In this document: positions 1-47,255 of the stretch, one piece after another
Layout of the letters: each line of letters starts with the position of its first letter
Numbering within the stretch: the stretch's first letter is position 1
Origin: Candidatus Dormiibacterota bacterium
Lineage (GTDB): Bacteria; Chloroflexota; Dormibacteria; Dormibacterales; Dormibacteraceae
NCBI GenBank assembly: GCA_963790575.1
Contig: CAWBPD010000026.1
Coordinates: 264,411 to 328,410, forward strand
Direction: 5' to 3'
Length of the DNA: 64,000 nt
Made by a program: the position numbers and the translations under genes
The notes under the pieces: generated by a model
Told to the model about the DNA's origin: nothing
The model's input: only the letters and a program-made list of their open reading frames with translations
Database searches by the model: none

Positions 1-1800
1 GCGCATGCAGCCCTCGATGACACTTCGCGCCACCGTCTCGGCGCCGGCCCCGCAGTCGTAGCGCCGCAGCCCGTGGGCGATGATCGAGTTGTCGTGGGGC
101 CATACCGACCCGTTGTGGTAGCTCATCGGGTTGTAGAAGGGGCTTTCCTTGGAGAGCGTCCGCACCCCCCAGCCGCTGAACAGCTCGGGGGCGACAAGGC
201 GGGCGGCGACGCGCGCCCCCTTCTCCGGGTCCACGATCCCCGACCACAGGCAGTGACCGGGGTTGCTGGTGACCGACGGCACCTGCCGCTTGTCCCCGTC
301 CAGCGCCTGCGCGAAGTAGCCGGCCTCGGCCATCCAGAACCGCTGATTGAACCGCTCCCGCAGGAGCCCGGCCTCGGCCTCCAGGCGCTGGGCGAGGGCG
401 GCACGGCCGGTGCGCAGGCACCATCGGGAGAGCCCGACTTTGGCCTGGTACACATAGCCCTGCACCTCGACCAGGGCGGCGGGAAGCTTGGCCGGGTGCC
501 CGTCGGGTGACATCAGCGATTGGGCGGAGTCCTTCCAGCCCTGGTTGCGGACGCCCCAGCCGCGGTCATACTTGCGCTCAGGCGCGTGCTCGGCGTACTC
601 CACGAAGCCGTCGCCGTCCTGGTCACCGTAGCGATCGATCCACTCCAGCGCCGCCTCCACGTGCGGCCACAGCTCGGTGAGCAGCTCGACGTCGCCGGTC
701 CAGTCGAGCAGCTCGACCAGGAGCACCAGGAAGAGCGGGGTGGCGTCGACGCTGCCGTAGTACGGGGTGTGGGGCACCTGGTGGAGGTGCGCGAGCTCCC
801 CGAAGCGGATCTCGTGCATGATCTTGCCCGGCTCCTCCTCCCGGTCCGGATCGGTGGCCGTCCCCTGCTCCTGCGCCAGGTAGCGGAGGCTGCCGCGAGC
901 CAGCTCGGGATTCAAGCTCAGCGTCTGCAGGGAGGTGATCAGGGCGTCGCGGCCGAAGGGGACGGCGTACCAGGGGATCCCGGCGGTCGGCAGCAGCCCG
1001 GTGGGACGCTCGTCGGCGAGGACCCGCAGGTCCTGCTGATTGCGCCACAGCAACGCCCTGTCGAAGAGCTCGTTGTCGGTGTGGATACGGGTCGACTGCT
1101 GGTTCCAGCGGTCGTAGGTGTCCTCCAGCCCGGCCAGCGCCCGGTCGAAATCGGCGATGCGGGCGAAGTCGCCGTCGAGGACGGCGTGGATGCCGACCAC
1201 GCAGACGAAGACCTCGTGCGGGTCGAGCGTGATGCGGACCGAGATCCGGTCCTCGTGAACCGTGGGCTCGGGCCTGACCACGATCCGGGTCTGGCGCCGG
1301 ACGCGGTCCAGGCCCTCGTAGCCGAAGATCAGCTGGCCCCGCTCGCGGCGCGGCTGGGAAAGGGACCCGAGCGCCTGCGGCGTGACGTACTTGCGGACCG
1401 CGAAGATGTCCTGGAAGTCGGCCCCGAAGCGCAGCTCCAGCTCCAGCTGCATGGTGCGCGCGGTGCAGTTCTGGAGCCCGATCCGGTCGTGCAGCCCGTC
1501 GTGGACGAAGCGACTGCGCCGGATGCTGAGCGTCTGCTGAGCGATCGTCTGACCGTCGAGCCCGACCAGCTCCGGGTTGACCATCTGGAATGTGGCCACG
1601 TAGGCGCGGTCGACGCTGTGGCTGAGGAGGATCGGCGTCTCTCCGTTGAGCCGGAGCTCGTAGGTGCTCAGAAAGCGGCAATCCTGGCGGTAGAGACCGA
1701 AGCCGCGCTCGTCGTCCTGGGGGAAATCACCATGGTCGTCGGAGGCGCAAAAGGTGTCGTTCTCCTTCAGGACCACGCGGCTCTCGAGCACGCCTGTCAT
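1..1800 (-). CDS. Glycogen debranching enzyme, amylo-alpha-1,6-glucosidase (GDE_C) family. The ATG is at 1800..1798; the C-terminus runs off the window start.
   Basis: A manual reverse-complement translation from 1800 gives a continuous frame: MTGVLESRVVLKEND...GYFAQALDGDKRQVPSVTSNPGHCLWSGIVD...SPFYNPMSYHNGSVWPHDNSIIAHGL. These motifs are typical of bacterial and archaeal GDE_C debranching enzymes. It is absent from the ORF track only because it is truncated by the window edge. Confidence 0.75.
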   Translation of the reverse strand, partial: MTGVLESRVVLKENDTFCASDDHGDFPQDDERGFGLYRQDCRFLSTYELRLNGETPILLSHSVDRAYVATFQMVNPELVGLDGQTIAQQTLSIRRSRFVHDGLHDRIGLQNCTARTMQLELELRFGADFQDIFAVRKYVTPQALGSLSQPRRERGQLIFGYEGLDRVRRQTRIVVRPEPTVHEDRISVRITLDPHEVFVCVVGIHAVLDGDFARIADFDRALAGLEDTYDRWNQQSTRIHTDNELFDRALLWRNQQDLRVLADERPTGLLPTAGIPWYAVPFGRDALITSLQTLSLNPELARGSLRYLAQEQGTATDPDREEEPGKIMHEIRFGELAHLHQVPHTPYYGSVDATPLFLVLLVELLDWTGDVELLTELWPHVEAALEWIDRYGDQDGDGFVEYAEHAPERKYDRGWGVRNQGWKDSAQSLMSPDGHPAKLPAALVEVQGYVYQAKVGLSRWCLRTGRAALAQRLEAEAGLLRERFNQRFWMAEAGYFAQALDGDKRQVPSVTSNPGHCLWSGIVDPEKGARVAARLVAPELFSGWGVRTLSKESPFYNPMSYHNGSVWPHDNSIIAHGLRRYDCGAGAETVARSVIEGCMR

Positions 1801-1839
1801 TGTGCGCGACTCGTCATCGGGGGCCGGGAAGCAGGGACA

Positions 1840-3189
1840 ATGGCCGTCATGGCCCGTCCCCTGGTTGCCCTGGTGGGGCGGCCCAACACCGGCAAGTCGA
1901 CCCTCTTCAACCGCCTCGTCGGCTGGCGCCAGGCGATCGTCGACAAGGAGCCGGGCCTGACCCGCGACCGCCTCTACGGCACCACCGACTGGGAAGGGCG
2001 GGAGATGACGGTGATCGACACCGCGGGCCTCGACGTGCTGGAGGGCCTGCGGTCTTCCGATCCGGCCGAGCAGACGCGACTGGCCATCGATGAGGCGGAC
2101 GTGATCGTGCTGCTGCTCGACGCTCGGGAGGGCCTGACTCCGATCGACCGCGACATCGGCGAGATGCTGCGACGCTCCGGACGCCCGGTGGTGGTCGGGG
2201 CCAACAAGGCCGACCACCATGGGACGCCGTATCTGCGGCACGAGCTGTACGAGCTGGGCCTCGAACCCGTCGTCTCTTTGTCCGGCCAGCACGGGATCGG
2301 CGTCGACGATCTGCTGGACGCCATCGTCGAGCGCCTGCCACCGGCTCCGCCCGAGGAGGAGGAGCCGGAGGAGGTCGCCCGGCTCGCGATCATGGGGCGC
2401 CCGAACGTCGGGAAGTCATCGCTGCTGAACCGGCTGCTGGGCGACGAGCGGGCGCTGGTCGCGGATACGCCGGGCACCACGCGTGACCCGGTCGACACCC
2501 AGGTCATGTTCGACGGCCTGCCCATGACGCTGATCGACACCGCCGGGATCCGCCGCCGGGCCGCCGCTCGGGACCGTGCCGAACACTTCTCCCTGCTGCG
2601 CGGGATCAACGCGATGGAGCGGTCCGACTGTGTGCTGCTGGTCCTCGACGGTCCCGAGGGCGTGCTGCGGCAGGACCAGCACGTCGCCTCCTACGCGCTG
2701 GAGGCGGGCAAGGGGCTGGTCGTGGTCGTCAACAAAGTGGACCTGCTGGAGGGAGAGGACAGCCAGCGGCGCCACTGGCAGGAGGTGGTCCAGCGCGAGC
2801 TGCGGTTCGCGCCGCACGTGCCGGTGGTGATCGCCTCGGCGCGCACCGGCCGCGGGACCCAGCAGATCCTGCCCACGGCGCTCGAGGTGGTGGGGCAGCG
2901 CCACGTCCGGGTGCCGACCAGCCGGCTCAACCAGGTGCTTCGGGAGGCCTTCCTGGAGCATCCCCCGCCGTCCTTCCGGAACAAGCGGTTGAACCTCAAG
3001 TACGCGACCCAGGCACGCTCGGAAACGCCGACCATGGTGCTGTTCGTGAACGACACCGAACTCCTGCACTTCTCCTACCGGCGCTACCTGGAGAACCGGC
3101 TGCGGGCTGAGTTCGGGTTCGCCGGCAACCCGCTGCGGCTGGTCCTGCGGGCGTCGGCGCGGGAGGGCGAGCGGGCGGGCCGCCACTGA
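1840..3189 (+). CDS. der: Ribosome-associated GTPase Der/EngA, with two tandem GTPase domains.
   Basis: The sequence from 1840 reads MAVMARPLVALVGRPNTGKSTLFNRL...DTAG. A second G domain follows (IMGRPNVGKSSLLNRLLG...DTAGIRRR...NKVDL), then a C-terminal KH-like domain. The upstream part of ORF 520..3189 is antisense to the debranching enzyme gene and was discarded. Confidence 0.9.
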   Translation: MAVMARPLVALVGRPNTGKSTLFNRLVGWRQAIVDKEPGLTRDRLYGTTDWEGREMTVIDTAGLDVLEGLRSSDPAEQTRLAIDEADVIVLLLDAREGLTPIDRDIGEMLRRSGRPVVVGANKADHHGTPYLRHELYELGLEPVVSLSGQHGIGVDDLLDAIVERLPPAPPEEEEPEEVARLAIMGRPNVGKSSLLNRLLGDERALVADTPGTTRDPVDTQVMFDGLPMTLIDTAGIRRRAAARDRAEHFSLLRGINAMERSDCVLLVLDGPEGVLRQDQHVASYALEAGKGLVVVVNKVDLLEGEDSQRRHWQEVVQRELRFAPHVPVVIASARTGRGTQQILPTALEVVGQRHVRVPTSRLNQVLREAFLEHPPPSFRNKRLNLKYATQARSETPTMVLFVNDTELLHFSYRRYLENRLRAEFGFAGNPLRLVLRASAREGERAGRH

Positions 3190-3195
3190 CCCCAG

Positions 3196-4125
3196 TCAGC
3201 CGAGGACCTGGGCGGTGCGGCGGGCCGTGGCCTCGAGGTTGGGCAGGTCCCTCCGCCAGGCGTTGTAGATGAGGTGCGAGACCCCGATGCGGACCTCGTA
3301 GCAGCGCAGGCGGAGGTCGAAGTCCGTGAGGTCGACCCCGGCGGCGCGCCAGTGGTCCAGCGCCCGCTCGCGCAGACCGGCGGCGGCGATACCGCGGTGC
3401 CAGGGACCCCAGAACGTGAACCAGGCGAGCTCGTAGAGGTGGTCGCCGTAGAGCGCGCACTGCCAGTCGATCAGCGCCGAGACGCGGGCCCCGGAGACGA
3501 ACACGTTGCGGTTGAGCAGGTCCGAGTGGAGGAGATCGCGCCGGTTCGGGCAGCGGCCGGACAGCGCCTCCAACTCATCCATGCCCCGGCGGAAGGTCCG
3601 GTCGGCTAGGTCGGAGGCGGCCAGGTCACCGCGCCAGGTGGAGCGGAAGGCCTCCGGCGTCCCACCGTCCACGGCGAGCAGGAACTCCCGCCAGTCGCGG
3701 TGGCGGCCGTTTCCCCGCGCGTCCCAAGGGCCGAGGCCGGTCGACCCTGAGGTGTCGGCCGTGCGCAGCGCGTCCAAGGTGGCCAGGACCGAAGGCGCCG
3801 CCGCCTCCATCCGCTCCGGCGGCAGATCCTCCAGGAAGTCACCGAAGGCACGCTCCGAGATCGCGTAGTAGGCGCCTTCCGCCTCGCCCACCTCGAAGAC
3901 AGCCGGGATCGGGAGCGCCGGCGACGCGAAACGGAGGGCCAGCAGGTCGACGTCGAAGGTGTGACGGTCGGGGTTGAACCGCACCACCAGCTCGCGTCCC
4001 GCGTGCCGGAACGCGTAGGCGCGCGACCACTCCCCCTGCGGGAGGTCGGGTCCCACCTCGACGTCGCCGCCAAACCGCCCGCGCAGGAAGCGCTGCGCGG
4101 CCGCGACATCCACCTGTTCACCCAA
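3196..4125 (-). CDS. Phosphotransferase enzyme family protein (aminoglycoside/antibiotic kinase APH-like).
   Basis: HSDLLNRNVFV...IDWQCALYGDHLYELA matches the APH/choline-kinase catalytic loop (HxDxxxxN) and Mg-binding (IDW..D) motifs. It is convergent with der. Confidence 0.75.
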   Translation of the reverse strand: MGEQVDVAAAQRFLRGRFGGDVEVGPDLPQGEWSRAYAFRHAGRELVVRFNPDRHTFDVDLLALRFASPALPIPAVFEVGEAEGAYYAISERAFGDFLEDLPPERMEAAAPSVLATLDALRTADTSGSTGLGPWDARGNGRHRDWREFLLAVDGGTPEAFRSTWRGDLAASDLADRTFRRGMDELEALSGRCPNRRDLLHSDLLNRNVFVSGARVSALIDWQCALYGDHLYELAWFTFWGPWHRGIAAAGLRERALDHWRAAGVDLTDFDLRLRCYEVRIGVSHLIYNAWRRDLPNLEATARRTAQVLG

Positions 4126-4270
4126 GAACCGTGCTATGGGCCCATCATGAGCCAGCTTTCACTCGAAGACGGCGAACGCGGTGGCGGCAACCAGGGCCGC
4201 GGCCAAGGGCCCACTGTCCGCACCGGGACCTCAAAACGCGCGGGGTAAGGTCTCAGTGCGGACAGTCGGC

Positions 4271-5977
4271 CCTTAACCCAGATTTTTCATGAAGGTTTCC
4301 GGAGGGTGCGCAGTCAAGGACGGAGAGGGCTGAGGTTGACATTCGCGCCCGACTGATGGGTTCGTCGCGTTGGGTTCATGGCTTTCGCCAGGGTCGAGAG
4401 TCCGGAGCGGATGCCGTCGGGGGCCCGGACATGGGGCGCGCGCGAGCTCGAGAGGCGTGCCGACCTCGCCCCCTGCGGTGATCGGTCGAGGCGGCCGGGT
4501 GGTGGTGGGCCGGGATCAGGTCTCCGGGATCTGTCGGATGCGGGTGAAGGCGGTGGCCAGCAACTCGCTCCAGCGCCAGTTGGACTGCAGGCGCAGGAGG
4601 AGGCGGCGGCCGCCATGGACCAGGCGCCCGGCGGTGTGCAGGAGACGGTAACGCAGGGTGCGCGGTTCCCAGAGTTGGGCCGCGCCGCGCAGCGCGATGC
4701 GGCGGAAGTGGCAGAGCAGGTCGTGAGCGGCAAGCACCAGTTCCAGCCAGATCTGGTTGGGCAGAAAGTCGCGGAAGGGGAAGGCGCGGAGCCCGGTCTC
4801 CTTGGCACAGCGGATCTGGTCCTCGCAGCGGGCGCGGGCACGATGGCGTGCCTCCAGGAGGGCGAGATCGGACCCCTCCTGGTCGGTGATGAAGACCTGG
4901 AAGCGCCAGCCCTGGTGGTCGGTGAAGGAGAGCTGGGCACCGGGGTGGGGACGCTCACGGCGGCAGATGGCGCGGGTGCCTGAGGGCCAGGCGGAGAGAT
5001 CGAGGTCGACGAGCTCGCAGACGTCCGCCCCCTCGCGCTCCTCGGCGTCCTGGCGGATGGCCGGGGTCCAGCTCTCCTCGGGAACACAGAGGATGGCCTC
5101 GCGGACGTCCTCGCGGAGATCGAAGCCGACCGAGAACTTGGTGTGCTCGCGAGCGCGCACCGCCTTCCAGGAATTTGTGGGTGGCGCCGGCGCTGTCGCA
5201 GCGCACCAGCAGGGGGGCGTCGCGCACCCACTCCGGGAGCTGCCGGCAGGCCAGCTCGAAGACCTCGAGGTGATCGGTGACGGTGTTGGAGCCGGCGCTG
5301 CCCGGGCGCAGGACGGCGGCCATCGCCTCGCCGGTGGCCTCCAGGAAGCCAGTCAAAGGATGGTAGCCGAAGCCGTGCTTGTAGTTGCCCGAGGCCTGCT
5401 CCTTTTCGGAATGCGCGGTGACCAGGGTGGCGTCGATGTCGAGGACCAGCAGCTCGGGTGTGCCGGCGCTCTGCCAGGCTCGCCGGCGCATCTGCCCTCG
5501 CGCCTCGCGCAGGCGCTCCAGGTCGGCTTCATGAAGGCGCTCGATGACGCGCCAGGCGGTCGGGACGGAGGCGACGTGGCCGAAGAGGTCGGGCTGATCG
5601 CGGAGCGTGGAGATATCGCTCAGACAGTCACCGCCGTCGGCAATGCTGACGACGAGATCGGTGAGGACGAGGCCTGGGTGATGGACGGCGCGAGGCGAAT
5701 GGCGCGGGTCGAGACCGTGGCAGAGGGCCTGCGTGTAGCCGAGTCGATCGGCCATTTCGCGGAGTGCGGCGGCGCCCGCGTGATTGACGAGCCCGGAGCC
5801 GTCGGCGCTGACTGCGAAGGAAGGGCGACGAATGCTGCTACGCTTCACCTGAAAGGTGCCTCCTCGGCTGGACGAATCGGAAGTGAGCAACCGCATTCTC
5901 CCAGTTCTGGACAGGCACCTTTCCTGCCTCTACGCTGCCCTCGCTCAGCGCCCCACGTGAAATATCGGGGTTAATGA
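4271..5977 (-). mobile_element. IS1380-family insertion sequence, about 1.7 kb, with imperfect terminal inverted repeats.
   Basis: The right end (4274..4296) reads TTAACCCAGATTTTTCATGAAGG. The reverse complement of the left end (5953..5974) reads TTAACCCCGATATTTCACGTGG, matching at about 17 of 22 positions. The 1701 bp length fits IS1380-family elements. The transposase gene fills the interior. The boundaries are uncertain by a few bp and no clear target-site duplication was seen. Confidence 0.7.
4516..5896 (-). pseudogene. IS1380-family DDE transposase, split by a -1/+1 frameshift near 5165.
   Basis: The N-terminal part (ORF 4955..5896) reads VSADGSGLVNHAGAAALRE...LVLDIDATLVTAHSEKEQASGNYKHGFGYHPL...CDSAGATHKFLE. 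The C-terminal part (ORF 4516..5160, a different frame) reads REHTKFSVGFDLRED...FITDQEGSDLALLEARHRARARCEDQIRCAKETGLRAFPFRDFLPNQIWLELVLAAHDLL. Together they make a single IS1380-type transposase of about 460 aa. The frame switches between THKFLE and AVRAREHTKF at 5160..5170. This may be a real frameshift or a sequencing error. Confidence 0.7.
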
Positions 5978-21809: not shown

Positions 21810-22151
21810 TCAGGCGATGGCCGGGTTGTCGACCACCCAGCGCCAGGTCCCGTCCGGCTGGCGCCGCGCGATCTCAGCCGTCGTGCCGGTCGCGACCACG
21901 CTGGAGGTAAGGGCAAGGTCGCCGGCGCGCACCGTCTCCTGCGGGCGGCCCGGCTCAAAGTGCGGCCGCGACCCCAGCAGCTCCGCGTACACGGCCCGGA
22001 TCGCGGTGTGACCGCGCGCCACCCGCCCGGGCCCGACCCGCAACACCGCGTCCGGCTCGTAGAGCGCGACCAGCCCCTCGAGGTCGCCGGCGTTGGCCCG
22101 CTCGACGAAGAGCCGTGCCAGGTCCTCTGGTTCGCGTGCGGTTTCCGTCAT
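21810..22151 (-). CDS. NTF2-like (SnoaL/DUF4440-like) small protein, paralog A.
   Basis: It is 113 aa (LFVERANAGDLEGLVALYEPDAVL...RRQPDGTWRWVVDNPAIA). It is about 60% identical to the adjacent paralog. Confidence 0.65.
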   Translation of the reverse strand: MTETAREPEDLARLFVERANAGDLEGLVALYEPDAVLRVGPGRVARGHTAIRAVYAELLGSRPHFEPGRPQETVRAGDLALTSSVVATGTTAEIARRQPDGTWRWVVDNPAIA

Positions 22152-22171: not shown

Positions 22172-22510
22172 TCAGTAAGCGATCGCCGGGTCATCGACGA
22201 CCCAGCGCCAGGTGCCGTCGGGCTGGCGGCGGGCGACCTCGGCTGCGGTCCCGGTGGGCAGCACCGTCGCGGTGAGAGCCACGTCGCCGGCGATCAGGGT
22301 GGGGCGGGCGACGCCGGGCGAAAATCGCGGCTGCACGGCGAACAGCTCGGCGTAGGCGCGGCGGATCTGATCGTGCCCGAGGGCACGCAGCCCGCTCGGG
22401 AAGGCGACCACCGCGCCCGGCTCGTAAAGCTCGAGGACGCCCTCCACGTCGCCGGCGTTGGCACGGTCCAGGAAGAGGAGCGAGAGGGATTCCGGAGTGT
22501 GGTCGAACAT
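22172..22510 (-). CDS. NTF2-like (SnoaL/DUF4440-like) small protein, paralog B. Its ATG abuts the IS1595 end.
   Basis: It is 112 aa (LFLDRANAGDVEGVLELYEPGAVV...RRQPDGTWRWVVDDPAIAY). The start codon lies in the sequence CATATG, which is part of the IS target site. Confidence 0.65.
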   Translation of the reverse strand: MFDHTPESLSLLFLDRANAGDVEGVLELYEPGAVVAFPSGLRALGHDQIRRAYAELFAVQPRFSPGVARPTLIAGDVALTATVLPTGTAAEVARRQPDGTWRWVVDDPAIAY

Positions 22511-22515
22511 ATGTT

Positions 22516-23572
22516 ATGGGGTATCCATTTGAGTGCAGCGCCCCCAAGATCTAGTAATCGCTCCGGGGCGCGATGAGCTCGTAGTACGGATGAGGATCGG
22601 TGGCAACGGCCTGCTCCACGAGCCGGTACCAGAGCAGCCCGCGAGCCTTGGAGGCTCGACGGTTGAAGCGGAACGTGTACTCGTCGAGGTAGTACCCGAG
22701 CTGACGGGCGTCCAGGCCGTTCTGGATGGTTCCGGCGAGCCAGCGTTTGAGCAGCGACGCGACTCGGTGGACACCCGGCAGCAGTTCGTGCGCCAACGAG
22801 CCGGAGTGCTCGATGGTCCGCTGATCGACGGTCACTCCGACCTTCTCGCCGAAGTCCTGGTAAAGGGGGTCGCCATCCGTCTGCAGGATCGATCCCGGGG
22901 CCACGTTCGTTTTCGCGAAGCTCACCAGGTCGAGCTTTCGACGCGTCCGGTCGATGACCGACATCCGAATGCGACCCAGCCCTCGCATCTGAGCCGCGGC
23001 ATGCTCGACCGCGATCACGACCTCGGCCTTGTTGTAGTACCGCGGCGTATTCATTCCGGGCGTCCGGCCACCGATGAAGGTGCAGTCCATCTCGACCACT
23101 CGGCCTGGACCTCCGAGCTTCTCGCGGTCCGGACGCACCATGGCGCGGCGCAGTTTGTGCATCCAGGCCCAGGCGGTCTGGTACGAGCCGAACCCGAGGA
23201 CGCGCTGCAGACCCAGGGCCGAGACGCCGTTCTTCTGGGCGCAGATGAACCACATAGCCGCGAACCAGGTCGGGAGCGGCAGGTGCGAACGGTGGAAGAT
23301 CGTGCCCGCGGTTGCCGACGTCTTGCGCCCACAGCGCCGGCACATCCATCGGGGCCCGGCCACTTTCCAGGCGTCCCCGTGCCCACATGCCGGACACACG
23401 AAGCCAGCCTTCCACCGCACACGGGCCAGGAACTCGACGCAACTGCCCTCGTCCGGAAACCATCGCTCGAATGCCTGCCAGCCTCCGGGGTAGTCGCGAC
23501 CGGCTTGAGGGTGATCTTCATCTGCCACGAGCACAAGATACTGGGGCTACTGCATTCAAGCAGATACCCCAT
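22516..23572 (-). mobile_element. IS1595-family insertion sequence, copy 1 (1057 bp).
   Basis: The ends are ATGGGGTATCCATTTGAGTGCAG and CTGCATTCAAGCAGATACCCCAT, which are imperfect inverted repeats. It is flanked by ACATATGT(T). It contains transposase ORF 22551..23534 on the minus strand (327 aa, GTG start), which has an N-terminal zinc finger (FVCPACGHGDAWKVAGPRWMCRRCGRK) and an IS1595 DDE domain. Confidence 0.85.
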
Positions 23573-23580
23573 ACATATGT

Positions 23581-24637
23581 ATGGGGTATCCATTTGAGTG
23601 CAGCGCCCCCAAGATCTAGTAATCGCTCCGGGGCGCGATGAGCTCGTAGTACGGATGAGGATCGGTGGCAACGGCCTGCTCCACGAGCCGGTACCAGAGC
23701 AGCCCGCGAGCCTTGGAGGCTCGACGGTTGAAGCGGAACGTGTACTCGTCGAGGTAGTACCCGAGCTGACGGGCGTCCAGGCCGTTCTGGATGGTTCCGG
23801 CGAGCCAGCGTTTGAGCAGCGACGCGACTCGGTGGACACCCGGCAGCAGTTCGTGCGCCAACGAGCCGGAGTGCTCGATGGTCCGCTGATCGACGGTCAC
23901 TCCGACCTTCTCGCCGAAGTCCTGGTAAAGGGGGTCGCCATCCGTCTGCAGGATCGATCCCGGGGCCACGTTCGTTTTCGCGAAGCTCACCAGGTCGAGC
24001 TTTCGACGCGTCCGGTCGATGACCGACATCCGAATGCGACCCAGCCCTCGCATCTGAGCCGCGGCATGCTCGACCGCGATCACGACCTCGGCCTTGTTGT
24101 AGTACCGCGGCGTATTCATTCCGGGCGTCCGGCCACCGATGAAGGTGCAGTCCATCTCGACCACTCGGCCTGGACCTCCGAGCTTCTCGCGGTCCGGACG
24201 CACCATGGCGCGGCGCAGTTTGTGCATCCAGGCCCAGGCGGTCTGGTACGAGCCGAACCCGAGGACGCGCTGCAGACCCAGGGCCGAGACGCCGTTCTTC
24301 TGGGCGCAGATGAACCACATAGCCGCGAACCAGGTCGGGAGCGGCAGGTGCGAACGGTGGAAGATCGTGCCCGCGGTTGCCGACGTCTTGCGCCCACAGC
24401 GCCGGCACATCCATCGGGGCCCGGCCACTTTCCAGGCGTCCCCGTGCCCACATGCCGGACACACGAAGCCAGCCTTCCACCGCACACGGGCCAGGAACTC
24501 GACGCAACTGCCCTCGTCCGGAAACCATCGCTCGAATGCCTGCCAGCCTCCGGGGTAGTCGCGACCGGCTTGAGGGTGATCTTCATCTGCCACGAGCACA
24601 AGATACTGGGGCTACTGCATTCAAGCAGATACCCCAT
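23581..24637 (-). mobile_element. IS1595-family insertion sequence, copy 2. It is 100% identical to copy 1 and lies in direct tandem with it.
   Basis: It is base-for-base identical to 22516..23572 and contains transposase ORF 23616..24599 (minus strand). It is separated from copy 1 by the 8 bp ACATATGT and followed by ACATATGTT. Confidence 0.85.
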
Positions 24638-24731
24638 ACATATGTTCCATTCTGGCCACAGGCGGCGATCCGCCGCAACCCTCCGGACCCGCGCCGGCGC
24701 CGCAACCCTGCCGCCCGGTTAGCATCCGGCG

Positions 24732-25193
24732 GTGGACGTACTGGAGTTCCGCCCGCGGCAGCGACGGACGTACCTGATCTGGGCGGCCGTCAGCGTTTTT
24801 CTGGTTCTGCTCGGCGTCCTGGGTGTGGCCGTGGCGCCTCACGTTGCCGGCGGGTGGACGGGGTTGCTCGTGCTCCCGGGTGGAGTCGGTCTCGTCCTCG
24901 CGCCGCTGACGCTCAACGGCGCCATCGCTCGCACCGTGTTCTCGGAGCATGGGATCCGGACCGGAGGGATCGTCAAGCGCCGGGCACGCTGGTCAGAGGT
25001 GTCCGCGATCCAGACCACGCGGGCCCAGGCCAGGAGCGCGCACGGCACCCGGGTCCGGGTGCAGCTCTCGTCGGGGAAGTCGTTCCGGCTCTCGGCGCCC
25101 TCCGACCTCCCCGACGGGGAGGACTCGGAATTCCTGGCCAAGCTCGGCCGCATCGAGGCCTACTGGCACGCCCGGCGGAACCGGTCAGGTTGA
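24732..25193 (+). CDS. Hypothetical membrane protein with a bacterial PH-like C-terminal region.
   Basis: There are two N-terminal transmembrane helices, then a soluble beta-rich region (GIRTGGIVKRRARWSEVSAIQTT...VRVQLSSGKSFRLSAP). No firm family assignment could be made. Confidence 0.45.
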   Translation: MDVLEFRPRQRRTYLIWAAVSVFLVLLGVLGVAVAPHVAGGWTGLLVLPGGVGLVLAPLTLNGAIARTVFSEHGIRTGGIVKRRARWSEVSAIQTTRAQARSAHGTRVRVQLSSGKSFRLSAPSDLPDGEDSEFLAKLGRIEAYWHARRNRSG

Positions 25194-27983: not shown

Positions 27984-28379
27984 ATGCGGACCCTGATGAC
28001 GCAGATGCGGGTACTGCGGCTGGTGCGGCTGCACGCCGCCGAACTGGCACGTCTGCGGGACCGGCCGTTCGACCGTACACCGCGTGAGGCGGCGGTCCGC
28101 AAGCTGCTGGAGCAGGCCCGCAACATCCGCCGCGGCTGGGCCGCCGAGCTGGCCGCGGAGGGACCGACGGCGCCGGGTCCCGCCGTGGAGCGCCAGGTCG
28201 TGCGCCGGATCGTCGCGCTGGAGGCCGCGATCGCGCTGCTGGCGCAGCCGAGCGTGGATGTGGACCGCGCCCGCGCCGAGTTCGAGGACGCCGCGCTGCC
28301 GCTGCTGCTGATGCTGCGCGGCCTGGACGGCTTCTCCGAACCGGCCCTCCTCGGCACCGGTCTCGCCCGCAGCGCCTAG
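27984..28379 (+). CDS. Hypothetical alpha-helical protein.
   Basis: This is the internal Met start of ORF 27918..28379 (MRTLMTQMRVLRLVRLHAAELARLRDRPFDRTPREAAVRKLLEQARNIRRGWAAELAA...). No known domain was found. Confidence 0.35.
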   Translation: MRTLMTQMRVLRLVRLHAAELARLRDRPFDRTPREAAVRKLLEQARNIRRGWAAELAAEGPTAPGPAVERQVVRRIVALEAAIALLAQPSVDVDRARAEFEDAALPLLLMLRGLDGFSEPALLGTGLARSA

Positions 28380-29404
28380 GCGGCGCCGTTCGACTCGTCC
28401 CGCCGCGCCCAGTCGAGCAGCGGCGAGATGTCGAACGCCGCTTCGTCGATCCCGCGGTGGAGGTCGCCGAGCGCGGCCACCCGGGCCGGCATGGTCGCGA
28501 TCGTGAAGTCGTCGGGCGCGATATCGTCGATCTCTTCCCAGCGAACCGGCGACGACACCGTGGCCCGCGGGTTGCCGCGAACGGAGTAGGCGGCCGCCAT
28601 GGTGTGATCGCGCGCGTTCTGGTTGTAGTCCAGGAACAGCTTGCGCGGGTCGCGATCCCGACGCCACCAGCTGGTCGTGACCGCGGCCGGGGCCCGCCGC
28701 TCGACCTCCCGAGCGAAGGCGAGCGCGGCGCGCCGCACGTCCGCGAAGGGGTACTCGGGCCGGATGCGCACGTAGACGTGCATCCCGTTGCCACCCGACG
28801 TTTTGGGCCAGCCCCTGGCGCCAAGCTCGAGCAGGACCTGGTGGACCACGTGGGCGGCGCGCCGCACGGTTGCGAACGTACATTCGGGCATCGGGTCGAG
28901 ATCGATGCGCCACTCGTCGGGTCGCTCGGTGTCGGCCCGGCGAACGTTCCAGGGGTGGAACTCGATGGTCGACATCTGGACCGCCCAGAGGACAGCCGCG
29001 GGCTCGGTGACGCAGAGCTCGTCGGCGGTGCGGCCGAAGCGCGGAAACCGGATCTGGACCGTCTCGACCCAGGGGGGCGCGCCCGCCGGCAGTCGCTTCT
29101 GGTGGACCTTGTCGCCGCCGGTCCCGGCCGGATACCGGTGCAGCATGGTCGGCCGCTCGAACAGCGCCCGCGTGATCTCGCCGGCGACGCTCAGGTAGTA
29201 GCGCGCCAGATCCAGCTTGGTTTCGCCGCGATCGGCGAAGTAGACGCGATCGGGATTGGTGAGCCGGATCGTGCGCGTGCCCACCGCCAGCTCGACCGAC
29301 GGAACGGAGCCCGCCATGCCCACGAGGCTACCCGCGGCGCCGAAGCGTACCAGTGTCCGCAGTAGAACGCCAAACCCTGCCGGTTGACGTCCGAGTGCGG
29401 ACAC
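28376..29404 (-). CDS. LigD-type NHEJ primase-polymerase domain protein (standalone PolDom). The start is uncertain and may be 29404 or about 29317.
   Basis: TIRLTNPDRVYFADRGETKLDLARYYLSVAGEI...IEFHPWN...KTSGGNGMHVYVRI match LigD polymerase (AEP primase) domain motifs. No ligase or Ku gene lies adjacent in this window. Confidence 0.8.
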   Translation of the reverse strand: MSALGRQPAGFGVLLRTLVRFGAAGSLVGMAGSVPSVELAVGTRTIRLTNPDRVYFADRGETKLDLARYYLSVAGEITRALFERPTMLHRYPAGTGGDKVHQKRLPAGAPPWVETVQIRFPRFGRTADELCVTEPAAVLWAVQMSTIEFHPWNVRRADTERPDEWRIDLDPMPECTFATVRRAAHVVHQVLLELGARGWPKTSGGNGMHVYVRIRPEYPFADVRRAALAFAREVERRAPAAVTTSWWRRDRDPRKLFLDYNQNARDHTMAAAYSVRGNPRATVSSPVRWEEIDDIAPDDFTIATMPARVAALGDLHRGIDEAAFDISPLLDWARRDESNGAA

Positions 29405-46070: not shown

Positions 46071-46437
46071 TCAGGCGGCCGGCAGCCGTAGGCGCTCACC
46101 CGGGTATACAACGCCTCCATGCAGATGGTTGGCGCGGTCGATCTCGTCCACCGTCTGGCGGGGATCCTGGTTCGGGAACCGGGCCTCCGCGATCGACCAC
46201 ACGGTCTGGCCGGGCTGCACCACCACCACCTGGGCCGGCCGGGGCGGCGTCGCCCCCATCACCCGGCTGGTGAAGATCAGGAACAGCAGCGCCAGTACGG
46301 CGACGCCGATCGCGAGATTGCGAACCGTGCGCCTCCACCGTGCCACCCGACGCCGTGGGCGCGGCACCGTCAGCCGGCTGTAGCCGAACCGGCGGGCTCG
46401 TGCAACACCGGGAACACCATTGACTCGCTCGTACATC
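46071..46437 (-). CDS. LysM-domain membrane protein, ChiZ-like, divergent from lexA.
   Basis: A transmembrane anchor (NLAIGVAVLALLFLIF) is followed by LysM (VVVQPGQTVWSIAEARFPNQDPRQTVDEIDRANHL..GGVVYPGERLRLP). It has the same divergent arrangement as mycobacterial chiZ-lexA. Confidence 0.7.
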
Positions 46438-46466
46438 CGTTCGCCTCCTCCTCGTCCCGGACCATA

Positions 46467-46482
46467 CGGAACAGACGTTCGA
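46467..46482. promoter_or_regulatory. LexA (SOS) box CGGAAC-AGAC-GTTCGA. Further degenerate boxes lie at 46493..46506 and about 46552..46567.
   Basis: This matches the Gram-positive/actinobacterial consensus TCGAAC-N4-GTTCGA at 11 of 12 positions. Additional GAAC-N4-GTT(T/C)G-like sites lie in the same chiZ-lexA intergenic region. Confidence 0.7.
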
Positions 46483-46643
46483 ATGTCAAGGGCGAACAAG
46501 AGTTTGCCGAACAGACGCTTTCTTTGCTAGGATGAGCCGAAGCCCGCGGGCCTCCCGGCGAGCAGACGTTCTGTTCTCAGGCGGTGCTCGGCGAGGTCCG
46601 CGTGACGTCCCAGCATTCCGATTGCCAAGCGAGGCGCAGATCG

Positions 46644-47255
46644 ATGAAACGACAGGTATCCGGACGGCAGGAGCAGATCCTGGACTACATCCGCGAGGTC
46701 ACGCGTGAGCGGAACTACCCGCCCAGCGTCCGCGAGATCGGCGAGGCGGTGGGGCTCTCCTCCAGCTCCACCGTGCACAACCACCTGAACCAGCTCGAGC
46801 GGCTGGGCCTGATCCGCCGCGATCCGACCAAATCGCGCACCGTACAGCTGGTCGAGCAGGTGGACACCGCCCGCATGCGGCGTCAAGCGGTGGCGGTCCC
46901 GGTGGTCGGCAACGTGGCCGCCGGCACCCCGATCCTGGCCGAGGAGCACATCGAGGACCACCTGCTGCTGTCCCCGGAGATCGCCCAGGAGGGCTGGTTC
47001 GGGCTCCGGGTGCGCGGCGACTCCATGGTCGGCGCCGGGATCCTCGACGGCGACATGGTCATCGTGCGGCCACAGAAGGACGCGCCGGACGGGACCATCG
47101 TGGTGGCGCTGGTGGGCGACGAGGCGACCGTCAAGCGCCTGGACCGGCAGCGGGGCCACGTCCGGCTGCTCTCGGAGAACCCTGACTACGCGCCGATCGA
47201 GCCCGAGCAGGTGGACATGGTGGGCGCGGTCCGCGGCGTGCTCAGGACCTACTGA
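46644..47255 (+). CDS. lexA: LexA repressor.
   Basis: A winged HTH is present (LSGRQEQILDYIREVTRERNYPPSVREIGEAVGLSSSSTVHNHLNQLERLGLI). The Ala-Gly cleavage site is present (VPVVGNVAAGTPI). The S24 peptidase Ser/Lys signature is present (VRGDSMVGAGI...ATVKRL). Confidence 0.9.
   Translation: MKRQVSGRQEQILDYIREVTRERNYPPSVREIGEAVGLSSSSTVHNHLNQLERLGLIRRDPTKSRTVQLVEQVDTARMRRQAVAVPVVGNVAAGTPILAEEHIEDHLLLSPEIAQEGWFGLRVRGDSMVGAGILDGDMVIVRPQKDAPDGTIVVALVGDEATVKRLDRQRGHVRLLSENPDYAPIEPEQVDMVGAVRGVLRTY

Follow-up and report, generated by a model that had tools for sequence, protein, structure and literature searches.

How do two identical insertion sequences (ISs) come to stand head to tail at a single position, and why at that position? 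We asked this of a 64,000-nucleotide (nt) stretch of DNA from a Candidatus Dormiibacterota bacterium (contig CAWBPD010000026.1; hereafter the window), in which a tandem pair of 1057-bp IS1595-family elements separates a two-gene NTF2-like operon from its native upstream region, a displacement already described in an earlier note on this DNA and borne out here. On its own, a tandem pair of some ordinary IS would deserve little attention; the significance of this one lies in where it inserted. The mapped ends of related elements show a clade-wide specificity for LexA-box sequences, and we consider it probable, at roughly 60%, that the window holds a real tandem of an element whose clade integrates specifically into LexA operators, the outcome of a double hit on one box.

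A direct repeat test on the window showed that positions 22515-23580 and 23580-24645 match exactly (1066 nt, period 1065). Together with the domain matches given below, this upholds the description of two base-identical 1057-bp IS1595-family elements arranged head to tail. The parts of the structure, in plus-strand order, are:

22503..22515, left half of the split target: TCGA and the 9-bp duplication ACATATGTT, including an ATG at 22510..22508 (minus strand) that is now the start of NTF2-like paralog B (NTF2-B)
22516..23572, minus strand, IS copy 1, nearer the NTF2 gene: 1057 bp, ATGGGG...CCCCAT, with imperfect terminal inverted repeats (IRs) matching at 30/40 positions
22551..23534, minus strand, transposase open reading frame (ORF) of copy 1: 327 amino acids (aa) counted from the first GTG, with an N-terminal zinc ribbon and an IS1595 DDE domain
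23573..23580, spacer between the copies: 8 bp, ACATATGT, the central core of a LexA box
23581..24637, minus strand, IS copy 2, nearer the native promoter: 100% identical to copy 1
23616..24599, minus strand, transposase ORF of copy 2: 327 aa, one ORF per unit
24638..24649, right half of the split target: the 9-bp duplication ACATATGTT and CCA

Read along the plus strand, the arrangement is TCGA-ACATATGTT-[IS 22516-23572]-ACATATGT-[IS 23581-24637]-ACATATGTT-CCA. One short sequence is indeed shared between and around the pair, as had been noticed before, although the outer flanks (ACATATGTT at 22507-22515 and 24638-24646) measure 9 bp each and not 8. Both transposase genes lie on the minus strand, as does NTF2-B, and so are aimed at the NTF2-like gene as the note had said. 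The junction between the copies forms a perfect palindrome of 28 bp (23563-23590, GATACCCCATACATATGTATGGGGTATC) in place of the 20 bp first reported, a trivial consequence of identical 10-bp IR tips combined with a palindromic duplication.

Because the flanking sequence is itself palindromic, the window alone cannot fix the ends of the IS, and we therefore defined them from independent copies (L001 and L081-L084). On the contig of a Dormibacteraeota metagenome-assembled genome (MAG), L001 has ACATGTGT on either side of ATGGGG...CCCCAT, and in L084 the element stands between two copies of GCGCATGT; the element is therefore 1057 bp long and makes 8-bp duplications. L001 was also considered as the window's own locus and rejected, BLAST showing that the IS alone is common to the two (99.4-99.6%) and that the flanks differ. 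It is the only near-identical copy of the window IS (L001 positions 1661-3814), and it adjoins a gene for a tyrosine recombinase/integrase, along with small ORFs that look toxin-antitoxin-like, and hence probably lies inside an integrated mobile element.

Both transposases match Pfam DDE_Tnp_IS1595 (PF12762; 53 bits, cutoff 27), Pfam Zn_ribbon_IS1595 (PF12760; 43.4 bits, cutoff 25.4; residues 27-70) and NCBIfam NF033547, 'IS1595 family transposase' (159.6 bits, cutoff 75). Elements of this family measure about 0.7-1.2 kb and carry a single ORF and terminal IRs, as does the window element with its 1057 bp and its 30/40 IR match, perfect over the 10-bp tip ATGGGGTATC. The family's 8-bp (7-9 bp) duplication is likewise present, at 8 bp in L001, L084 and the window spacer and 9 bp at the outer flanks of the window, and a perfect 8-bp duplication was found in more than 35 relatives. 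The window element is of the IS1595 family on every feature tested, sharing with it the length of about 1 kb, the single transposase with N-terminal zinc ribbon and IS1595-type DDE domain, IRs ending in ...GGGnTATC and the 8-bp duplication; its ends resemble what we take to be the consensus of the ISSod11 group (nnnGcnTATC). Its transposase is about 42-44% identical to those of the named relatives ISRama1 and ISCsp2 and at most 64% identical to anything beyond its own near-identical copies, which makes it an unnamed new IS of the family. Looking up the exact sequences of the window's transposase (with either of two starts), PIG-L protein and NTF2-B gave no recorded match.

What the element entered can be read by taking the pair out. 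Deleting 22516-24646 restores tCGAACATATGTTCcA, a GAAC-N4-GTTC palindrome of the LexA or SOS-box type, as at IS-free orthologous sites. With the pair and one copy of the duplication deleted in silico, the minus strand reads CCAGAATGGAACATATGTTCGACC; the reconstructed target TCGAACATATGTTCCA matches TCGAAC-N4-GTTCGA at 11/12 positions, and the intact box is written TCGAACATATGTTCGA. In the pre-insertion site, ...CAGAAT GGAACATATGTTCGA..., this box lies over the transcription and translation start of the NTF2-like operon, of which the relevant features are:

21810..22151, minus strand, NTF2-like paralog A (NTF2-A), the second gene of the operon, preceded by a GAGGGAG ribosome-binding site of its own
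22172..22510, minus strand, NTF2-like (SnoaL_2) paralog B, cut off from the promoter and the LexA box
24649..24678, minus strand, inferred native promoter of the NTF2-B/A operon: -35 TTGCGG at 24678-24673, 18-nt spacer, -10 CAGAAT at 24654-24649

The two paralogs are 60% identical and carry SnoaL_2 domains (PF12680; 33.8 and 40.1 bits, cutoff 27). The comparison with empty sites in relatives that the note had proposed could be run on seven IS-free loci, namely L085, from the related Dormibacteraeota MAG that also holds L001 (about 84-86% nt identity), and six Logan contigs (L086-L092); all seven keep the box uninterrupted, as GGAAC(A/G)TATGTTCGA. The NTF2 site of the MAG carrying L001 is accordingly empty. 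The orthologous loci are syntenic, with PIG-L, two SnoaL_2 genes, NUDIX and orotidine monophosphate (OMP) decarboxylase, and contain no IS. Directly upstream of the box, TTGCGN-N17/18-CA(G/A)AAT is conserved in eight aligned sites, and sequence farther upstream diverges, a pattern suggesting a -35/-10 pair whose start site is overlain by a GAAC-N4-GTTC operator. In a homolog search, NTF2-B orthologs (88-92% identical) are annotated three codons longer (MEHMF/MERMF), and the duplicated 9 bp correspond to codons 2-5 of that annotation (ATG GA|A CAT ATG TT|C). The ATG at 22510, internal in the longer reading, is probably the true start and a leaderless one, as is suggested by the position of the second ATG 7 nt past the conserved -10; the NTF2-like operon as a whole is probably leaderless. 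The insertion had been described as lying exactly at the start codon: that ATG does fall within the duplicated target, but what the element chose is the LexA-operator palindrome, as its relatives do.

The host's own lexA region calibrates the motif:

46071..46499, minus strand, LysM/YneA-like gene, divergent from lexA
46430..46572, four GAAC-N4-GTTC-type boxes in the lexA/yneA-like divergent promoter region
46584..47255, plus strand, lexA (TIGR00498, 201.6 bits, cutoff 110.95)

The boxes (GGAACAGACGTTCG and three similar ones) start at 46430, 46468, 46493 and 46559, in and around the intergenic region. The same divergent layout is known for lexA/yneA in Bacillus and for lexA/Rv2719c in Mycobacterium tuberculosis. 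With four such boxes upstream of lexA, GAAC-N4-GTTC is the type of LexA motif in use in this host. Experimentally defined LexA sites are TCGAAC-N4-GTTCGA in M. tuberculosis (PMC3381160) and tCGAAC-N4-GNNCGa, with TCGTAC variants, in S. venezuelae (PMC9380542). A scan of the entire window for boxes with at most two mismatches gave 60 matches against 41 expected, a mild enrichment; one CGAACGTACATTCG box, at 28873, is internal to a LigD-like gene (polymerase/primase domain, 28376-29404) and is probably a chance match in its coding region.

Whether this choice of site is a property of the element or an accident of one locus was examined in relatives. A protein-guided scan of GTDB representative genomes yielded 80 loci of 473 relatives (transposases 44-64% identical), which we took together with L001, and about 100 relatives were considered overall; ends were mapped by inverted repeat and perfect 8-bp direct repeat, blind to the flanking sequence. 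In a Gram-positive-type clade (Actinomycetes, Acidimicrobiia, Dormibacteraeota), every one of the 30 mapped insertions has the form TCGA|AC-N4-GT|TCGA, scoring at least 9/12 against TCGAAC-N4-GTTCGA in 30/30 and at least 10/12 in 27/30, a score reached by 1.3e-4 of all 16-mers in the same loci. In a gammaproteobacterial clade (Marinomonas, Psychromonas, Pseudomonadales), all eight insertions lie in CTGT|N8|ACAG with at least 7/8 matches (background 2.4e-4), and several of these targets match the full consensus TACTGTATATATATACAGTA. CTGT-N8-ACAG is the proteobacterial LexA box, and TACTGTATATATATACAGTA the consensus of its E. coli type; other known LexA motifs include GTTC-N7-GTTC, a direct repeat, in Alphaproteobacteria and TGTTC-N4-GAACA in Verrucomicrobia. 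In a neighbour-joining (NJ) tree the two classes of target correspond to two separate monophyletic transposase clades. Between them lies a third clade, from delta-proteobacterial, Planctomycetes-Verrucomicrobia-Chlamydiae (PVC) and archaeal MAGs, whose seven mapped targets show no LexA-like motif; single plasmid copies from Methylocella, Methylomagnum and Legionella likewise have no LexA-like target. Either the specificity for LexA boxes is limited to certain clades, or the motifs of the hosts in other clades went unrecognized.

Annotated plasmid copies served as an independent check. ISRama1 (L094) and a copy on a Ralstonia nicotianae megaplasmid (L099) lie in perfect CTGT|N8|ACAG sites with perfect duplications, and copies on R. 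solanacearum p71.9 (L100) and an Enterobacter IncC plasmid (L093) lie in CTGG|N8|ACAG (7/8). Copies from Burkholderia (L098), Achromobacter (L101) and R. syzygii (L104) still have the two half-sites, around 8-mers that no longer match, and ISCsp2 (L095) keeps N8+ACAGT on its intact side. The R. nicotianae copy (L099 positions 1724-3416, at CTGT|ATAAATAT|ACAG) is about 1.7 kb long, some 0.6 kb more than its relatives, and may hold additional sequence or a passenger.

Two other ways of drawing the boundaries were tried and rejected. The TCGA...TCGA half-sites are not long IRs of the element: IS-free sites have an intact box, and at more than 35 loci the two 8-mers repeat in direct orientation and not as an inverted pair. 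A 12-bp duplication is contradicted by asymmetric targets such as TCGT|ACGCATGT|TCGA in L013.

A scan of metagenomes for the element's ends returned four contigs, two of which (L081 and L083) have flanks that are not direct repeats, possibly through recombination between copies or chimeric assembly. The IS flanks of L081 (positions 1-126 versus 1187-1312) are about 85% inverted repeats of each other across no fewer than 126 bp, half-box and 8-mer included. Two copies at paralogous SOS-box loci may have recombined and caused an inversion, or the assembly may be chimeric or a hairpin. L083 (Ga0209737_10484167, positions 26-1082) holds a copy 95% identical to the window IS with both half-boxes, TCGA...TCGA, and its 8-mers ACGGATGT and ACATCTGT are closer to reverse complements than to direct repeats. 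Those of the R. syzygii copy, ATATATGT and ACATATAT, are likewise nearer to reverse complements, and the two cases hint that copies in different SOS boxes have recombined with each other. A single Pseudomonadales MAG carries the same IS twice, each time at the same position of another multicopy IS, whose DDE transposase gene it interrupts (L066 positions 3963-5346 and L067 positions 3963-5002); one of these copies has a 344-bp internal partial duplication of the 3' part of its transposase gene.

The genes beside the insertions are those that real SOS boxes would predict. Directly past the insertion lie umuD-umuC in L079 and imuA in L098, with topB past the insertions of L058 and L061, and a gene for an SOS-response-associated peptidase faces the one in L101. 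The commonest neighbours are 13E12-type genes with DUF222 (+HNH), which face eight actinobacterial insertions (L013, L025, L031, L033, L036, L037, L038 and L047); most 13E12 genes of M. tuberculosis are directly LexA-controlled (PMC3381160). Multicopy, LexA-controlled and possibly mobile, genes of this type may be both the main target reservoir and a vehicle for spread. For two gammaproteobacterial insertions (L054 positions 2861-3949 and L076 positions 2644-3975) the target is a CTGT-N8-(C)CAG box at the 5' end of a TnpB (IS605 OrfB/Cas12f-like) gene, an indication that the start of some tnpB genes holds a LexA-type box.

Against this background, the explanation that fits the tandem best is that transposase acted twice at a single preferred site, in an order that we infer. 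One copy would have entered symmetrically about the dyad of the box, with the 9-bp duplication ACATATGTT; a second, identical copy would then have landed, pointing the same way, in the core ACATATGT restored on the side nearer the promoter, with an 8-bp duplication. The second step could equally have been an excised circle with its 8-bp junction integrating anew, or inter-sister dimerization. The expected product is flank-9bp-IS-8bp-IS-9bp-flank with a period of 1065, and in silico removal of one 1065-bp unit leaves a single IS between 9-bp ACATATGTT repeats. A second insertion and a circle recombining into the resident copy give the same product, which sequence cannot separate. Tandem dimers of the P element with an 8-nt junction have a documented origin in double insertion at a preferred site, and dimers of the bacterial IS30 and IS256 also hold a duplication between their copies (PMC5932611).

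Several points weigh against this account. The copy number is that given by the assembly. A scan of 84 related loci for a second IS copy revealed no other tandem, and re-insertion beside a resident copy is therefore not frequent. The site of the proposed second event, CCAT|ACATATGT|TCCA, keeps one half-site and scores 8/12, below all 30 primary targets. The model needs one 9-bp and one 8-bp duplication, or else a 1-bp assembly error. A sigma-70 consensus scan does not call the native promoter, whose -35 TTGCGG matches at 3/6 positions; the promoter, the leaderless start and the binding of LexA here are deduced from conserved sequence. Nor is the orientation of the insertion relative to the neighbouring SOS gene uniform across relatives, so that the specificity cannot in general be explained by the capture of an SOS promoter.

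The assembly itself is the source of one competing explanation, that a single IS or a variable number of copies was written as two. The copies are 100% identical, and the only asymmetry of the structure is one T in a TT run, a typical position for a long-read indel. Yet from short reads a perfect 1-kb tandem is collapsed or broken by the assembler, which would not place precisely two copies within a contig longer than 64 kb, and a long-read assembly easily spans 2.1 kb; the joint, moreover, has the exact structure of a transposition product, an 8-bp core duplication with no arbitrary breakpoint, and the 9/8/9 pattern is unlike the simple duplication of one repeat-bounded assembly unit. We regard an artefact as unlikely. 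A single IS with 8-9-bp direct repeats would also be a substrate for replication slippage or unequal crossing-over, which without a second transposition would again give repeat-IS-repeat-IS-repeat. If the 9-bp repeats exchanged in register, the period should be 1066 and the spacer 9 bp, not the observed 1065 and 8 bp; with joint homology of 1 bp this route does not fit unless an extra 1-bp deletion or sequencing error is assumed, and it seems to us very improbable.

The earlier note had instead pointed to (IS)2 structures, known in other IS families as highly active transposition intermediates, and to strong hybrid promoters at abutted ends. On this model the pair would be an intermediate like those of IS30, IS21, IS2 and IS911, with a highly reactive junction and a strong hybrid promoter driving both transposase and NTF2. 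The geometry is right, with head-to-tail ends abutted across a short spacer equal to the family's duplication length; both transposase genes aim at the NTF2 gene with no terminator predicted between, and a circle with an 8-bp junction recombining into a resident copy would yield exactly the 9/8/9 pattern. The promoter is what fails: between 22100 and 24900 the scan found no sigma-70-like promoter and no terminator-like site, and the junction forms no -35/-10 combination, with no TANNNT hexamer across it and the sole one, TATCTT, entirely inside the left end. NTF2-B has no ribosome-binding site for internal initiation, the literature searched documents no circle or dimer pathway for IS1595, and the 84 loci hold no other tandem. 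An active intermediate of this kind finds no support in the family, and we judge it quite unlikely. Set beside known systems, the (IS)2 dimers and circle junctions of IS30, IS21, IS2/IS911 and IS256 likewise consist of head-to-tail copies around a few bp of target-derived spacer; their junctions are strong promoters and proven intermediates, whereas no junction promoter is detectable here. IS30 also prefers palindromic hot spots and its own ends. In dimers of the P element and R1 the junction is exactly one target duplication, mostly at the best-matching preferred sites (PMC5932611), but these are eukaryotic elements with transposases of another superfamily, and their target is a degenerate 8-mer or ribosomal DNA (rDNA), not the operator of a repressor.

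The probable effect of the pair on the operon can be sketched. It would split the box and move the SOS-type promoter 2.1 kb away from NTF2-B; the displaced promoter would read into copy 2 and then copy 1 in the transposase sense, behind a weakened operator, GAACATATGTAT. TATCTT, the only good -10-like hexamer, lies 6 nt ahead of the second GTG, a position compatible with a leaderless transposase mRNA from a weak promoter of the element's own. NTF2-B is now preceded by ...GGATACCCCATAACAT-ATG. With no Shine-Dalgarno sequence and its leaderless context lost, it is probably poorly translated as an internal cistron behind 2.1 kb of IS. Read-through could still allow expression of NTF2-A, given a ribosome-binding site of its own and the lack of any predicted terminator. 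The expression of paralog B from the IS that the note had put forward is thus possible as transcription, but translation is doubtful for a gene that looks leaderless in the empty sites, and loss of function appears the more likely net effect on this paralog. An apparently SOS-controlled NTF2-like operon of Dormibacteraeota has in this way been disconnected from its control region.

How elements of such different hosts find LexA boxes is a separate matter. One possibility, which we hold tentatively and below even odds, is that the host LexA itself directs the choice of target, the transposase recognizing operator-bound LexA or a DNA shape that LexA imposes and not the base sequence. Guidance of this kind would explain why the target is GAAC-N4-GTTC in Actinomycetota, Acidimicrobiia and Dormibacteraeota versus CTGT-N8-ACAG in Beta- and Gammaproteobacteria, and why the 8-bp staggered cut is always centred on the operator dyad; in its favour, the target motif co-varies with the host LexA motif across two clades whose transposases are 44-47% identical. 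Counting against it, the cuts in GAAC-N4-GTTC fall within the half-sites contacted by LexA, the third clade lacks specificity, and the mapped relatives include no alphaproteobacterial GTTC-N7-GTTC case. Alternatively, each transposase clade may read the sequence itself. If LexA does guide the element, this would be a bacterial IS directed by a host transcription factor, rewiring the SOS regulon and able to put its transposase behind SOS promoters, and the tandem would be a by-product of repeated recruitment to one operator.

Insertion into short, repeated palindromic motifs of the genome has parallels. IS1397/ISKpn1 and IS110-type elements insert in repetitive extragenic palindromic (REP) sequences, and IS1111 in attC; in the present case, by contrast, the motif is the operator of a transcription factor, and it changes between clades from GAAC-N4-GTTC to CTGT-N8-ACAG in step with the LexA motif of the host. 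Mobility is coupled to LexA and the SOS response in integron integrases, ISCR and temperate phages such as GIL01. These carry a LexA box in their own promoter, whereas the window element has none and enters boxes of the host. The full-text literature searched, IS1595-related papers included, holds no description of an IS targeting LexA operators or SOS boxes, though prior mention is possible, for example in the founding IS1595 paper or ISfinder notes; the papers searched do not mention this specificity either for the window clade or for that of ISRama1, ISCsp2 and Marinomonas, and LexA-operator targeting that tracks the host motif appears to be undescribed. One study of the IS1595 family reports only A/T-rich 8-bp repeats (PMC12561309).

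If confirmed, these elements would form a new class of site-specific IS aimed at the operators of a global repressor, and a natural experiment on protein-guided versus sequence-encoded target choice. They would systematically de-repress, silence or rewire SOS genes (umuDC, imuA-imuB-dnaE2, 13E12-type elements) and could tie their own expression to DNA damage. Their flanks could be used to read the LexA motifs of uncultured phyla, and 'LexA boxes next to transposase genes' predicted in regulons may be insertion scars.

The DNA adjoining the IS pair on the promoter side also differs from that of relatives: between 24646 and 25311 the window is about 514 bp longer than the orthologous intergenic region of L085 and L086 (136-152 bp). 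This extra DNA includes a membrane-protein-like ORF (24732-25193, 153 aa) with no Pfam or NCBIfam match, and in the same region a -35-like motif, GGGTTGCGGCG, is duplicated at a 27-bp spacing, at 24671 and 24698.

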